From IMG/VR virus record IMGVR_UViG_2778261632_000005, positions 1 through 42,705 of that record: a DNA stretch of 42,705 nt; one strand, written 5' to 3'. This DNA comes from a virus. Its lineage: Duplodnaviria; Heunggongvirae; Uroviricota; Caudoviricetes. The translations under genes and the position numbers were made by a program. The notes beneath the pieces are model-generated. The model was not told the DNA's origin. It saw nothing but the letters and a program-made list of their open reading frames with translations, and searched no databases. Within the stretch, counting starts at the first letter, position 1, and every line of letters begins with the position of its first letter. This document shows positions 6,799-10,682 of this stretch, one piece after another.

Positions 6799-7458
6799 TT
6801 AGATGTTCTGCGTTATCTGAACAACTTTGCCTACAATGCGGCAATTGCCATCAATGGGGATCGGCTTAAAGGCGGGATTAAGCGGCATGAGATATGAGTA
6901 AGGGCTATCCCAAACAAGTTTCTTCACAGTCGCTTCTGCTGAACCATCAAGTATTGCAACGACAATTTTCCCATACAGGTCATCAAGTTGTCCGTAATGT
7001 GGCTCAACAATAACGATTGAGCCCTCCGGAATTGATGGAAGTCCATGTGGGTTAGTCATTGACTCACCACGAACTACCAATCCGAAAACTTCATCAGAAA
7101 CGTTTGCTGTGGTTTGAGTCCATGAAATCACATCAGTAAGCCTTGAACATGCATAGGTATCAGTCCATACCCCGGCCTGAACAGCAGAGATAATAGGAAC
7201 GGCGGTAGGTGGCTTCAGGTATGGGATAACTTTGGTGTCATCTTGAGTCTCATCACCCTTGCCGTAAAGAATCCATTCAGGAGTGGTCTGTAAAGCCATC
7301 GCTAGTTGGTGAAGGTTTTCTCCGTCAGGCTTAGTTGTACCGTTCTCCCATTTGGTAACGGACACTCTACTCACCCCAAGGCGTTTAGCCAGGGTCTGCT
7401 GAGTTATATCGAGCTGGACTCGCCGGGATCTTATTCGGTCTTTCATCTCTGTTTTCAT
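6799..7458 (-). CDS. cI: Prophage repressor, cI-like (HTH plus LexA-type S24 autopeptidase)
   Basis: N-terminal HTH (QQTLAKRLGVSRVSVTKWENG), Ala-Gly cleavage site (VQAGVW), Ser nucleophile GESM and Lys (TVKKL). Confidence 0.9.
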   Translation of the reverse strand: MKTEMKDRIRSRRVQLDITQQTLAKRLGVSRVSVTKWENGTTKPDGENLHQLAMALQTTPEWILYGKGDETQDDTKVIPYLKPPTAVPIISAVQAGVWTDTYACSRLTDVISWTQTTANVSDEVFGLVVRGESMTNPHGLPSIPEGSIVIVEPHYGQLDDLYGKIVVAILDGSAEATVKKLVWDSPYSYLMPLNPAFKPIPIDGNCRIVGKVVQITQNI

Positions 7459-7550
7459 GTAACCAATGTTACATTGATTCCTTGTAACTGTTGTTTGCTA
7501 TTTAATGTACCTTTTGTTACCTTTAAGGCGTGAGTTAACCAGGAGGAACC
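7459..7550. promoter_or_regulatory. Divergent repressor/cro promoter-operator region (OR-like)
   Basis: Third operator-like repeat TTTAATGTACCTTTTGTTACC at 7501-7521 plus GTTAC/GTAAC half-site-like motifs at 7465-7490; AGGAGG RBS before cro. Confidence 0.55.
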
Positions 7551-7748
7551 ATGTTTAAAACTGACGTCATAGAACACTTCGGAGGGGTATCAAAAACCGC
7601 GAGTGTTTTGGGAATTTCCCATCCTGCAGTGTGCAGATGGGGTGATGTGATCCCTCAGAAGCAAGCTTTTGTTATCGAACGTATCACTAAGGGCAAGCTT
7701 AAATACGATGCCAGCCTTTACCAAAAGTCTACAGACACAGCAGCTTAA
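7551..7748 (+). CDS. cro: Cro-like small HTH regulator
   Basis: 65 aa, divergent from the repressor; HTH (SKTASVLGISHPAVCRW); AGGAGG RBS. Confidence 0.7.
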   Translation: MFKTDVIEHFGGVSKTASVLGISHPAVCRWGDVIPQKQAFVIERITKGKLKYDASLYQKSTDTAA

Positions 7749-7773
7749 ACATAACTACCAAAGGAAAAACAAG

Positions 7774-8238
7774 ATGGTAGAGCAAACCCTGAAGGAAGTA
7801 GTGAAAGCGATGTGCAAGGCGTACCCCGGAGGCCGTCAGGCTATGGCTGGTGCGTTGGGCATGTCAGAAACCCAGTTCAACAACAACCTTTACGAGAAAA
7901 ACGGTTGTCGTTTCTTTGAAGTCACCGAGTTGGAAGCGATGGAAGACATTTCCAACACGTCATTGGTTGCTGACTACTTTGCCAAGCGTCGCGGCGCACT
8001 GCTGGTGGACGTACCAAACCTGGAAGATCTGGACCGTGTTGACTTGTTCAGCCGTGCAATGCGCACAGCAGCTGCAAGAGGGCAGGTTGATCAGATTATC
8101 CAGAAGGCGCTTGAGGATGGAGTTATTGAAAAGCATGAAGCCGAAGAGATTCAGGAACATCACCGCCGTCATCTGGCAGCGCGTGAAGAAGAAATCCGCG
8201 CGATTGTGGCCTTATTCAGCCGCCGTCAAAAGAAGTGA
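7774..8238 (+). CDS. CII-like / YdaT-like regulator
   Basis: 154 aa immediately after cro; AAGGA RBS; the ORF is open from 7669 but the first ATG with an RBS is 7774. Confidence 0.55.
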   Translation: MVEQTLKEVVKAMCKAYPGGRQAMAGALGMSETQFNNNLYEKNGCRFFEVTELEAMEDISNTSLVADYFAKRRGALLVDVPNLEDLDRVDLFSRAMRTAAARGQVDQIIQKALEDGVIEKHEAEEIQEHHRRHLAAREEEIRAIVALFSRRQKK

Positions 8239-8299
8239 CGCCAGCGAGTGTGCAGCTCCAGGCGTCGTGGCGTGTCGTATTCAGTGGAGAAACTAACGC

Positions 8300-8638
8300 A
8301 TGAACAGTGTAACAACACAGTACCGCAGGTCGCAACTTATTGCTCGACCTATGCCGGGTGGAAAAGGCCCGGCGCAGTTCGTGTATGGGGTAATGGTATC
8401 CGGATGCTTTGAGCCTGTCTGCTACCAGTTTGCCGATTGGGTTGTAGGTGATTTCAACGGCCAGGCGGAGAAGGTCGAATGCGAGCACTCAACAGACGGT
8501 TCAAAGACAGCTACGGCGTCCCAGTCAGGGTTATCCGGTGGGAGCCAGAAACTCAACGGGTTATATACCTGCGCGACGGATACGAGCATGAGTGCTTCAG
8601 TCCTCTCGAACAGTTTCAGCGTAAATTCAGGGAAATAG
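8300..8638 (+). CDS. Hypothetical protein (start supported; C-terminal extent doubtful)
   Basis: GGAGA RBS before the ATG at 8300; the C-terminal third is Ser/Thr-rich, looks like off-frame translation, and overlaps the next ORF. Confidence 0.35.
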   Translation: MNSVTTQYRRSQLIARPMPGGKGPAQFVYGVMVSGCFEPVCYQFADWVVGDFNGQAEKVECEHSTDGSKTATASQSGLSGGSQKLNGLYTCATDTSMSASVLSNSFSVNSGK

Positions 8639-8691
8639 AGGATCAGAATGAGCCTGTTAATGACATCCCGGCCCATAGTAATAAATCCTGA
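8479..8691 (+). CDS. Hypothetical small protein (70 aa)
   Basis: GGAGAAGG RBS; protein-like composition; overlaps the start of the replication gene. Confidence 0.4.
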   Translation: MRALNRRFKDSYGVPVRVIRWEPETQRVIYLRDGYEHECFSPLEQFQRKFREIEDQNEPVNDIPAHSNKS

Positions 8692-9568
8692 CCTTGCATA
8701 CAGCATTGGCCTGAATGAGGCGATTGCTTTGCAGCAGATTAATTACTGGCTGCAAGAAACCAAATCGGGCATGGAAAGTGATGGTGTTCGCTGGATTTAC
8801 AACACGACAGAACAGTGGCTGGAGCAGTTCCCGTTCTGGTCTGAGTCGACCCTGAAGCGTACCTTCACCCGCCTGAAGACACTCGGTGTGCTCAAAATTG
8901 AGCAACTGAACAAGTCCCAACGCGACATGACCAACTTCTACACAATCAACTATGAAAGCGAGCTTTTAGATGAAGTCAAAGTGACCGAATCGAAGAGGTC
9001 AAAATGTGCTCTTCCATCAGGTCAAAATGACACGATGGAAGAGGTCAAAGTGACACGCTCCATCAGGTCAAAACGAACCGATGTCATCAGGTCAAAATGC
9101 ACTGATGATCTTACAGAGAATACAACAGAGAGTACTACAGAGATTACAGGTAAAGACTCTTGTCCGGTTGCGGTGCAACCAGACCGAGATGTGTTGATTA
9201 CTGATCAGGCTAAACAGGTTTTGGTTCACCTTAACCAGGTCACGAACTCACGCTACCAGGTTTCAACCACGTCTCTGCAAAACATCCGTGCACGTATCGG
9301 CGAAGGGTTCACCGTTGCAGAGTTGTCGCTGGTGGTGGATTACTGCAACGCGAAGTGGGGTGATGACCTGAAGATGTCTGATTACCTGAGACCACAGACG
9401 CTTTTCCAGCCGTCCAAGTTCCCGGGATACCTCAAGTCTGCAAATAACTGGGACAAAGCTGGCCGCCCAGAACGAGTGAATGGCGAGTGGGCCCGCGAAG
9501 ATGGCATCTTCAAACCCAGCTTCAAGAACACTGATTACAGCGCTATTCCACCAGGGTTCAGGGGGTAA
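8648..9568 (+). CDS. Replication initiator, lambda O-like
   Basis: 306 aa in the replication position after cII; contains an internal iteron array; GAGGA RBS. Confidence 0.7.
   Translation: MSLLMTSRPIVINPDLAYSIGLNEAIALQQINYWLQETKSGMESDGVRWIYNTTEQWLEQFPFWSESTLKRTFTRLKTLGVLKIEQLNKSQRDMTNFYTINYESELLDEVKVTESKRSKCALPSGQNDTMEEVKVTRSIRSKRTDVIRSKCTDDLTENTTESTTEITGKDSCPVAVQPDRDVLITDQAKQVLVHLNQVTNSRYQVSTTSLQNIRARIGEGFTVAELSLVVDYCNAKWGDDLKMSDYLRPQTLFQPSKFPGYLKSANNWDKAGRPERVNGEWAREDGIFKPSFKNTDYSAIPPGFRG
8971..9099 (+). repeat. Origin-like iteron array inside the replication initiator gene
   Basis: Six direct repeats with core GTCAAA(A/G)(T/C)G at 8975, 8998, 9021, 9044, 9067 and 9091 (23-bp period, last 24), with alternating GAAGAG/CATCAG flanks. 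Confidence 0.75.
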
Positions 9569-9570
9569 CG

Positions 9571-10014
9571 ATGAGCATTCTGAAAATGGTCCAGATGTTT
9601 ATTGCCATGAACCCCGGCTCAACGACCAGGGACATCATCGAAGGTCTGACCCAGTTCAGCCAGGACAGGCTACAACTCGCCGTTTGCCGCCTGCATGGTT
9701 CTGGGCTGGCCACGCGTAAACGCGACGGTCGCCAATTCCGTTACTACGCGGAACCGCCAGCAGATTGCCACTTCGAAGTGTTTGAACCAACTCCTGAAGT
9801 CAGCGCCTTGATGGAAACGGCGAAAGGTCTGGAGTCGAAAGATCTCTTTCACCGTGCCGCGACGATTTACATGGAGGCGTTCAGCGCATCAGCCATTGAA
9901 TCAGAGCGAGCAGCAATACTGGCAGAACGTCAGCGCTGCCTTGGCCTGGCTAAACCAGCAGTTATTGCCGAAGACGGATGCTATCTGGCTGGTCGATTTT
10001 CGGGAGGCCGTTAA
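9571..10014 (+). CDS. Hypothetical protein in the lambda-P position (147 aa)
   Basis: Follows the O-like gene; no Walker motifs, so not a DnaC-type loader. Confidence 0.5.
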   Translation: MSILKMVQMFIAMNPGSTTRDIIEGLTQFSQDRLQLAVCRLHGSGLATRKRDGRQFRYYAEPPADCHFEVFEPTPEVSALMETAKGLESKDLFHRAATIYMEAFSASAIESERAAILAERQRCLGLAKPAVIAEDGCYLAGRFSGGR

Positions 10015-10682
10015 TGAACTATTCACTGATTTACGCCGATCCACCGTGGGAATACGGGAACACTATCAGCAATGGCGCAGCGGAAAACCATTACGGCACG
10101 ATGAAACTCATCGACATTAAACGCCTTCCTGTCTGGGAACTGGCCGCCGAAGATTCAGTTCTGGCTATGTGGTTCACCGGTACACATACCCGTGAGGCGA
10201 TCGAACTGGCTGAAGCATGGGGTTTTAAGGTTCGGACCATGAAGGGATTCACCTGGGTGAAGTTCAACTCACTGGCAGAACAGCATATCAATAAAGCGCT
10301 TCAGGCTGGTGGAGTAGAGGACTTTTACGACTTCCTTGACCTGTTGAACGCTCAGACCCGAATGAACGGTGGTAACTATACCCGCGCCAACACCGAGGAT
10401 CTGTTAATCGCCACCCGTGGTAAAGGGCTGGAACGGTTAAACGCGAGCGTGAAGCAGGTTATCTACAGCCCACTTGGTGAGCATAGCCAGAAGCCAGCAG
10501 AAGCGCGTTACCGTCTGGAGCAGTTATATGGCGATGTGTCACGCATTGAGTTGTTCAGCCGCTGCGCGTCCCCCGGCTGGCATCACTGGGGAAATCAGGC
10601 AGAAAACCCTGATGTAATCATGTTCCCTGGTTACGTTGCTAAACCTGCTCCGCTGCTGGAGGTGGCTTATGCAGGATGTTGA
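10014..10682 (+). CDS. DNA N6-adenine methyltransferase, MT-A70 / phage Dam-like
   Basis: DPPW catalytic motif (LIYADPPWEYG) near the N-terminus; GGAGG RBS; ATG overlaps the upstream stop (TAATG). Confidence 0.8.
   Translation: MNYSLIYADPPWEYGNTISNGAAENHYGTMKLIDIKRLPVWELAAEDSVLAMWFTGTHTREAIELAEAWGFKVRTMKGFTWVKFNSLAEQHINKALQAGGVEDFYDFLDLLNAQTRMNGGNYTRANTEDLLIATRGKGLERLNASVKQVIYSPLGEHSQKPAEARYRLEQLYGDVSRIELFSRCASPGWHHWGNQAENPDVIMFPGYVAKPAPLLEVAYAGC

Follow-up and report, generated by a model that had tools for sequence, protein, structure and literature searches.

The 42,705 nucleotides of the Caudoviricetes record IMGVR_UViG_2778261632_000005 of IMG/VR (positions 1 to 42,705; hereafter the window) carry, between a cII/ymfL-like gene and a replication initiator gene, two small open reading frames (ORFs) that share 160 nt (8479-8638). 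They form a conserved two-gene overlap and not a frameshift. The upstream ORF (ORF112, 8300-8638) is related to ymfM of the e14 prophage of Escherichia coli K-12. The downstream one (ORF70, 8479-8691), read in the -1 frame relative to ORF112, encodes a DUF4222 protein and runs 44 nt (8648-8691) into the initiator gene (8648-9568). The two genes are real, overlap out of frame and lie in the early-right operon of a lambdoid prophage resembling e14; our explanation of the whole, including the translational coupling proposed below, is one that we hold to be probable. An earlier note on this DNA, made from the sequence alone, had found these ORFs ambiguous and left a choice between a frameshift and a pair of small nested genes. 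The three ORFs are indeed present in the ORF listing, with tracts resembling Shine-Dalgarno (SD) sequences before both small ones, and ORF70, as the note had it, overlaps both ORF112 and the initiator start and has its own SD.

The arrangement is not accidental, since it is found again in 80 IMG/VR loci, in 41 species-representative genomes, in several phage records and in the e14 prophage of E. coli K-12. For the analysis of nucleotide changes, the 80 IMG/VR loci (retrieved with the DUF4222 protein as query, 71-99% identity) were combined with e14 and the phage records, which gave 71 unique overlap sequences; locus L016, whose DUF4222 ORF is broken by a stop, was set aside. Changes at each codon position were counted by parsimony on a neighbour-joining tree.

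ORF70 matches the Pfam family DUF4222 (PF13973) with 65 bits (cut-off 27, E 4.4e-18) over profile positions 5-52 of 53, and an identical 70-amino-acid protein (P0032) carries the NCBI name “DUF4222 domain-containing protein”. Changes in the overlap are distributed 76/48/280 over the first, second and third DUF4222 codon positions, a pattern that points to strong purifying selection on this frame and to a real coding gene. The core motif RVIYLR..GYEHECFSPLEQF is invariant or nearly so, and the AlphaFold2 (AF2) model of ORF70 is a small beta-barrel with a predicted local distance difference test (pLDDT) score of ~90 in its core. The start codon (ATG; TTG in the e14 type) is fixed in position across relatives and is preceded, at 3-10 nt and in every subfamily, by a purine-rich SD-like tract, despite differing surroundings. 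The C-terminal ~12-14 amino acids of ORF70 are an off-frame reading of the 5′ end of the initiator gene. They vary with whichever initiator follows, giving forms of 59, 61 or 70 amino acids. With an SD and a start codon to itself, ORF70 encodes a small beta-barrel protein of the DUF4222 (RgdR) family.

The YmfM-like ORF112 is made of two very different parts. It aligns over its residues 1-112 with the 112-position profile phrog_1170 (E 5e-38), while its residues 1-62 match phrog_20047, a family of 63 amino acids. In the N-terminal domain, which we name Y-N, changes in its own frame number 121/117/257 by codon position (the 257 being spread over 62 codons), and therefore the first ~58 residues are protein-coding. 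The AF2 model gives residues 9-62 a pLDDT of 71-85, with three strands and a helix. The nested-gene option of the earlier note is supported on both sides, by the conserved start and SD of the DUF4222 gene and by this coding signature in the N-terminal ~58 amino acids of ORF112. Y-N exists as three divergent subfamilies (ORFs of 112/111, 108 and 112 amino acids), each of them linked to a DUF4222 gene of the same kind, and also occurs alone, as a 63-amino-acid gene in Providencia phage PSTRCR_117lys, a 59-amino-acid gene in Hafnia phage yong2 (the stop overlapping the next start, ATGA, in these two) and a 65-amino-acid ORF in Citrobacter phage phiNP. Stand-alone Y-N genes in other phages range from 55 to 68 amino acids. 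A search of 1.84 billion representative proteins with the YmfM profile returned 102 family members with bimodal lengths: 36 of them have 40-69 amino acids and match only profile positions 1-~58 (some are fragments), 35 have 100-129 amino acids and match the whole profile, and ~10 reach at least 190. Distant long lineages could be traced to their DNA in five cases; all five (5/5) have a Pfam-confirmed DUF4222 ORF (54-72 bits) in the -1 frame, so every long member traced to DNA is long because it reads through a DUF4222 gene. Y-N is an independent module, and the functional protein part of YmfM-family ORFs is this ~58-amino-acid N-terminal domain.

What remains of ORF112 is the DUF4222 gene read in the +1 frame. 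The earlier note had found that the C-terminal third of ORF112 looks like off-frame translation; the observation is right, and its extent is larger, since residues ~60-112 make up nearly half of the ORF. In this tail the changes by YmfM-frame codon position are 48/280/76: the second positions are the most variable, and the pattern is therefore anti-coding. Residues 65-112 are predicted to be disordered (pLDDT ~40). The frame nevertheless stays open. Across the first 52 DUF4222 codons the YmfM (+1) frame is free of stops in 70/71 unique sequences, while the third (+2) frame has 1-6 stops in every one of the 71. The exact probability that the +1 frame be open, given each DUF4222 protein and the codon usage of the window, is 0.045-0.12. 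As a control, the RgdR-type DUF4222 genes of P4-like elements, which have no upstream YmfM-like ORF, were open in 0/35 unique sequences and carry 2-4 stops each. All 41 species-representative loci (41/41) have the frame open to the same point, with a Pfam-confirmed DUF4222 ORF in the -1 frame; their genera include Citrobacter, Enterobacter, Kosakonia, Kluyvera, Pantoea, Mixta, Phytobacter, Atlantibacter, Buttiauxella, Raoultella, Escherichia and Shigella.

To create a YmfM-frame stop, a DUF4222 codon must end in TA or TG and be followed by A or G, which allows the avoidance of stops to be followed codon by codon. Codons 4, 18 and 28 are always at risk. Their third bases vary between C and T (7, 6 and 1 changes in total) and turned to a purine only once, in locus L028, where the change creates the sole premature stop of the set. 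Changes between purine and pyrimidine at these codons (1/0/0) compare with a mean of 5.1 at comparable codons not at risk (approximate significance: Poisson 3.8e-6, Fisher 2.2e-4). Codon 4 ends in C or T in 70/71 unique sequences, the exception being the GTA of L028; codon 18 ends in a pyrimidine in 71/71, with 6 C/T changes and 0 to a purine; codon 28 is GTT in 70/71 and GTC in 1/71, and never GTA or GTG. At two further codons the risk depends on the neighbour. Codon 16 is GTA or GTG solely where the next codon is CGN (9/42 versus 0/29, p = 0.009), and codon 19 is ATA solely where the next codon begins with C (13/51 versus 0/20). Judged from these patterns, selection keeps the YmfM frame free of stops across the DUF4222 gene without constraint on the peptide sequence.

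The place where the frame ends is conserved as well. In 69/71 unique sequences from viral contigs and phages DUF4222 codon 53 is xTA (ATA, TTA, CTA) followed by A or G, which makes the YmfM-frame stop. The same holds for every species-representative genome with a complete locus, where GTA is also used. Local DUF4222 sequences differ at this point (REIE, TELK, REIT, REVG and others), yet the stop is still formed, be it as ATA|G, ATA|A, TTA|A, CTA|A or GTA|G. In all loci the layout is TAG-AGG or TAA-AGG, 6 nt and ATG, i.e., the stop lies inside the initiator SD and 9 nt before the initiator ATG. The YmfM frame is the frame of the initiator, and loss of the stop would therefore fuse the two ORFs. 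Selection holds the YmfM-frame stop at DUF4222 codon 53. Of the two frames of the overlap, DUF4222 is selected at the amino-acid level and the YmfM frame for openness and stop position only. The possibility raised in the earlier note that comparison would leave a single conserved frame applies to amino-acid conservation, which in the overlap is confined to DUF4222; it does not extend to the openness and the stop position of the YmfM frame, which are conserved too.

These observations bear on a first alternative, namely that only DUF4222 and a short Y-N product matter and that the 112-codon length, owed to descent or chance, is an annotation artefact with a functionless tail and stop. The NCBI Prokaryotic Genome Annotation Pipeline (PGAP) does not call the 112-amino-acid ORF in a near-identical E. 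coli or in K-12, the tail does resemble off-frame sequence, and the C-terminal ~12 amino acids of the DUF4222 protein are likewise an incidental off-frame reading, of the initiator that follows. Against this, an open frame expected by chance in 5-12% is met in 70/71 unique sequences, in 41/41 species-representative loci and in 5/5 distant lineages; the at-risk codons vary freely between C and T and took a purine only in the premature stop of L028; DUF4222 genes of the RgdR type have 2-4 stops in the same frame; and the stop position is kept by four solutions at codon 53 (ATA, TTA, CTA, GTA). The statistics of stop avoidance already disfavour this alternative, which we consider very improbable.

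The main rival to our explanation is true dual coding, in which the ~53-residue tail would be a functional, flexible extension rich in Ser, Thr and Gly, e.g., a linker or a tail for degradation or interaction, and the frame would be kept open for its sake. Selection for openness is compatible with it, and the published filamentation phenotype of ymfM (see below) came from the full 112-codon ORF. The two exceptions at codon 53 (2/71), the SfV and Stx1-phage loci, also speak for it. In SfV orf37 (278 amino acids; L085 1261-2097) the +1 frame through DUF4222 runs past codon 53 into a Phage_ASH domain, and in “Ant” of the Stx1 phage (340 amino acids; L088 1147-2169) it continues into Phage_ASH and then a Rha domain. 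Since the same frame joins an N-terminal Y-N-like segment or start to Phage_ASH in these proteins, the overlap region is a real linker there, and both annotated proteins overlap a whole unannotated DUF4222 gene. Against a functional tail stand the lack of amino-acid conservation, with second codon positions the most variable, the predicted disorder, the many family members of 55-68 amino acids that consist of the N-terminal domain alone, and an undiminished rate of synonymous change in DUF4222 within the overlap (280 changes over 53 codons, compared with 257 over 62 codons in the Y-N region). We regard it as unlikely.

A frameshift was the other option of the earlier note. It could be a sequencing or mutational split of an ancestral gene or a programmed -1 frameshift that fuses Y-N to DUF4222. 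DUF4222 is read in the -1 frame relative to the upstream ORF, and databases contain a few in-frame Y-N::DUF4222 chimeras (P0096, of 119 amino acids with 14 member sequences, P0029, P0031 and P0007). However, the chimeras switch frame at differing points, some of them twice, which is the pattern of indel errors or sporadic mutants. DUF4222 has in place a conserved ATG/TTG start and an SD-like tract, with a stop just upstream; in the window this TGA lies 9 codons before the ATG, so that a fusion by frameshift would be confined to a window of 27 nt, and in most relatives such a stop is found 1-15 codons before the start. The two-frame layout is kept in more than 120 independent loci, and both modules also occur alone. 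No slippery heptamer of the form X_XXY_YYZ is conserved in the overlap, where only AAATTTA at +145 (30 loci) and TTTAAAG at +22 (8 loci) were seen. A programmed -1 frameshift or split gene was rejected as a candidate, as neither a conserved slippery site nor a missing initiation signal was found. A frameshift is, in our opinion, extremely unlikely. Natural variants exist in which a change of 1 nt fuses Y-N in frame to DUF4222 (P0096), or in which the upstream TGA is lost and the DUF4222 ORF extended (L002, ~1674-1746); the Y-N::DUF4222 fusion variants are either sequencing errors or viable fusions.

Two overlapping genes being the preferred reading, a reason for the open YmfM frame may be sought at its end, where the TAG (8636-8638) overlaps the initiator SD (8637-8642). 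Ribosomes that start on the YmfM-like ORF would be brought to the initiator start by termination-reinitiation. The selected property would then be translation of the YmfM-like ORF right up to the initiator ribosome-binding site, and stops would be avoided along the whole overlap because an early stop anywhere in it would break the delivery of ribosomes. The coupling would extend, over an inserted DUF4222 gene, the ATGA coupling of phages that have the N-terminal domain gene alone. A simple model of start-site occlusion would not account for stop avoidance along the entire overlap. We put forward translational coupling tentatively, as an account whose likelihood we place slightly under even.

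Several points weigh against this proposal. No conserved RNA structure sequestering the initiator SD was found: the folds around the DUF4222 and initiator ribosome-binding sites are no more stable than those of shuffled sequences (z = +1.6 and -0.6, for a single sequence), and pairing of the SPLE codons with the initiator SD is no better than in shuffled controls over 42 sequences, the window showing a weak local pairing. Ribosomes on the YmfM frame may not be needed, since those translating DUF4222 also cross the initiator start. The tail of the e14 type could be partly a remnant or a tolerated linker, because read-through into an Ash-family domain in the SfV-like and Stx1 loci makes a longer protein. 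The sequences compared are linked by descent and by mosaic recombination, which makes the significance values approximate. Finally, translation of both ORFs is deduced from the sequences, and a multi-omics study of the SOS response gives ymfM at the transcript level only (PMC11002266).

Table 1. Features of the ymfM-DUF4222 overlap and its surroundings (window coordinates).
Feature	Position	Strand	Remarks
LexA/cI-like repressor	6799-7458	-	
P22-Cro-like gene	7551-7748		
YmfL / CII (CP76)-like regulator gene	7774-8238	+	upstream context; Pfam Phage_CP76 E 7.8e-15; phrog_101 CII-like activator E 6.5e-45
SD GGAG of YmfM-like ORF	8286-8289	+	inside conserved GTGGAGAAACTAACGCATG; precedes ATG 8300
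YmfM-like ORF (ORF112)	8300-8638	+	ATG, 112 amino acids, stop TAG 8636-8638 (ORF listing)
Y-N domain	8300-8476	+	amino acids 1-59 of YmfM-like ORF; part under protein-level selection
TGA stop in DUF4222 frame	8449-8451	+	9 codons upstream of ATG; next codon 8452
SD-like tract GGAGAAGG of DUF4222 gene	8467-8474	+	precedes ATG 8479
Tail of YmfM-like ORF	8477-8635	+	amino acids 60-112; +1 reading of DUF4222 gene
DUF4222 ORF (ORF70)	8479-8691	+	ATG, 70 amino acids (ORF listing)
DUF4222 core domain	8488-8637	+	amino acids 4-53
Stop-avoidance codon 4 (CTC before AAC)	8488-8490	+	CTA/CTG would give TAA/TGA in YmfM frame
Stop-avoidance codons 16 and 18 (GTC before AGG; GTT before ATC)	8524-8532	+	
Stop-avoidance codon 28 (GTT before ATA)	8560-8562	+	
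DUF4222 codon 53 (ATA) and following G	8635-8638	+	TAG stop of YmfM-like ORF
Initiator SD AGAGGA	8637-8642	+	overlaps YmfM-like stop codon; 5 nt before ATG 8648
Replication initiator	8648-9568	+	downstream context; 306 amino acids; Pfam Phg_2220_C E 1.9e-20; phrog_428 replication initiation protein E 5.6e-66

The overlap lies in the immunity and replication region of a lambdoid prophage (window 6799-9568; Table 1), which DNA searches assign to the e14 family. PGAP names the counterpart of the regulator gene 7774-8238 “YmfL family” in a near-identical E. coli locus. The sequence GTGGAGA(A/T)AC(T/C)AACGCATG upstream of the YmfM-like ORF is kept across all three Y-N subfamilies. Between 7400 and 9700 no promoter-like site was found; terminator-like sites numbered two, about as many as shuffled sequence would give, and both are outside ORF112 and ORF70; no Rfam family matched either strand of 7000-10000. 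The initiator gene contains direct repeats with a 23-nt period at 8955-9107 (core (A/G)AGGTCAAA(A/G)TG and CATCAGGTCAAAATG), which are probably the iterons of the origin, as in lambda O. Downstream of it are an ORF of 147 amino acids with a weak PerC-like match (E 0.03; window 9571-10014) and, overlapping this ORF by 37 nt, an adenine methyltransferase of the MT-A70 family (window 9978-10682; named by PGAP in L001). Antisense to the ymfM-DUF4222 overlap, PGAP predicts a “hypothetical protein” of 55 amino acids in the near-identical E. coli genome (L001 1684-1851, corresponding to window 8422-8589, minus strand). The antisense ORF of which it is part (8422-8706) is open in only 40/71 unique sequences, and the call is probably false because the frame is interrupted in the other 31/71. 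The DNA of the window is 99.8% identical to two E. coli chromosomes (one of them L001, E. coli 23CRST032) and its DUF4222 protein is 100% identical to one of Citrobacter portucalensis strain A60 (L179); from these two identities it follows that this type of prophage moves between Citrobacter and Escherichia.

The closest known system is e14 itself. ORF112 shares with K-12 YmfM homology over the N-terminal domain (phrog_1170, by alignment and profile search) and the same ORF architecture. It also has the same synteny, between a ymfL/CII-CP76 gene and a replication gene in a lambdoid immunity region. Both ORFs have 112 codons and an N-terminal domain of the same kind (59% identity over 59 amino acids to the e14-type phages), and in both the stop is 9 nt before the next ATG and a DUF4222 ORF is embedded. 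The tails differ at ~40% of residues, because the tail tracks the synonymous sites of DUF4222, and the downstream initiator modules are different. In K-12, where ymfM (b1148, “cell division inhibitor YmfM”) sits between ymfL and ymfN, three-frame translation reveals the embedded DUF4222 ORF LRQVNRWFKDHYGVPVRVIRWEPETQRVIYLREGYEHECFSPLEQFRRKFREIEVGHEH, starting with TTG after AAGGAG, whereas the window gene starts with ATG. The curated record NC_000913.3 annotates ymfM and not DUF4222; in K-12-derived genomes PGAP has DUF4222 (1204001-1204180; L004 3502-3681) and not ymfM. Phage records annotate either ymfM or DUF4222. Both genes have thus already been catalogued individually and the overlap is not a new kind of element. 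In the literature we found no paper noting that ymfM and DUF4222 share the same DNA, nor the ambiguity that this creates for the division inhibitor. The curated K-12 record and the automatic pipeline of NCBI each show one gene; annotation of both would probably be appropriate, and how much of YmfM is functional deserves to be looked at again. The e14-type segment is present in 2,111/5,426 complete E. coli genomes.

The ambiguity concerns SfiC, the SOS-induced division inhibitor of e14. It was assigned to YmfM by cloning ymfM in pBAD24, which led to filamentation and loss of Z rings, and by a ymfM deletion (Ansari et al., bioRxiv 10.1101/2020.11.19.390815). That preprint regards ymfM as one gene, makes no mention of the embedded ORF and contains neither tagging nor western blots, point mutants or an analysis of the sequence. 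In an earlier library screen the activity was not mapped below the ymfK-ymfN region (PMC6206680). The 339 bp cloned hold the DUF4222 SD, its TTG start and 53/59 of its codons, i.e., the whole Pfam domain, and the deletion removes the SD, the start and those 53 codons as well. As the clone and the deletion affect both genes, the published experiments cannot separate the Y-N domain, the 112-amino-acid protein and DUF4222, and the attribution of this 40-year-old phenotype to the YmfM protein rests on them. The inhibitor could be the Y-N/YmfM product, the DUF4222 product, or both. It is conceivable, though we think it rather unlikely, that the SfiC block comes wholly or partly from the embedded DUF4222 protein and, more generally, that YmfM is a ~58-amino-acid protein, its ORF being kept free of stops over a gene unrelated to it for the sole purpose of bringing ribosomes to the replication gene. 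If DUF4222 were the inhibitor, the strong motility loss on RgdR over-expression would share the same cause; if ribosome delivery were the reason for the open frame, the overlap would be selected for translation and not for its product.

RgdR (ECs1581) of enterohaemorrhagic E. coli O157:H7, a basic DUF4222 protein of 99 amino acids, is the only characterised member of the family. It activates both LEE1 and type III secretion, is a strong repressor of motility and shows non-specific DNA binding, activities known only for ECs1581 and close variants (PMC3378721). ORF70 belongs to the same Pfam family (82 bits for RgdR, 65 bits for ORF70), and both proteins are small, basic and encoded by prophages. 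They differ in that identity is ~34% and RgdR has N- and C-terminal extensions; furthermore, RgdR is found in a P4-like satellite prophage where a YmfM-like ORF is absent, and in the +1 frame of its gene there are 7 stops overall and 2-4 in the core. The regulatory activity of RgdR cannot be assumed for ORF70. The DUF4222 genes of two unrelated types of element, the P4-like satellite (RgdR, L089 4305-4604) and lambdoid phages (window 8479-8691), are both directly upstream of, and overlap, a replication gene, the primase and the initiator, respectively. This placement hints that the role of DUF4222 might be linked to replication rather than purely to regulation of the host.

Termination-reinitiation coupling is known from polycistronic operons where an upstream stop and a downstream start form ATGA or are closely spaced. 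The YmfM-like stop within the initiator SD and the ATGA of phages with Y-N alone have the same form as these classic junctions. The present case is different in that the YmfM-like ORF comes to the junction only after crossing a whole inserted gene that is read in another frame, and in that coupling is here proposed from the arrangement. It offers a clean and statistically tractable example of an alternative frame that is kept open, with its stop fixed, independently of the peptide. Such a signature is useful for telling selection on translation from selection on the product in overlapping genes. In the overlaps of lambda Rz/Rz1, phiX174 and MS2 two frames share the same DNA and both products have sequence-dependent functions. 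As in those systems, the ymfM-DUF4222 pair belongs to a compact phage operon and the sequence of one frame is dictated by the other; unlike them, one of its frames shows selection only for being open and for the place of its stop, and not for its amino acids.

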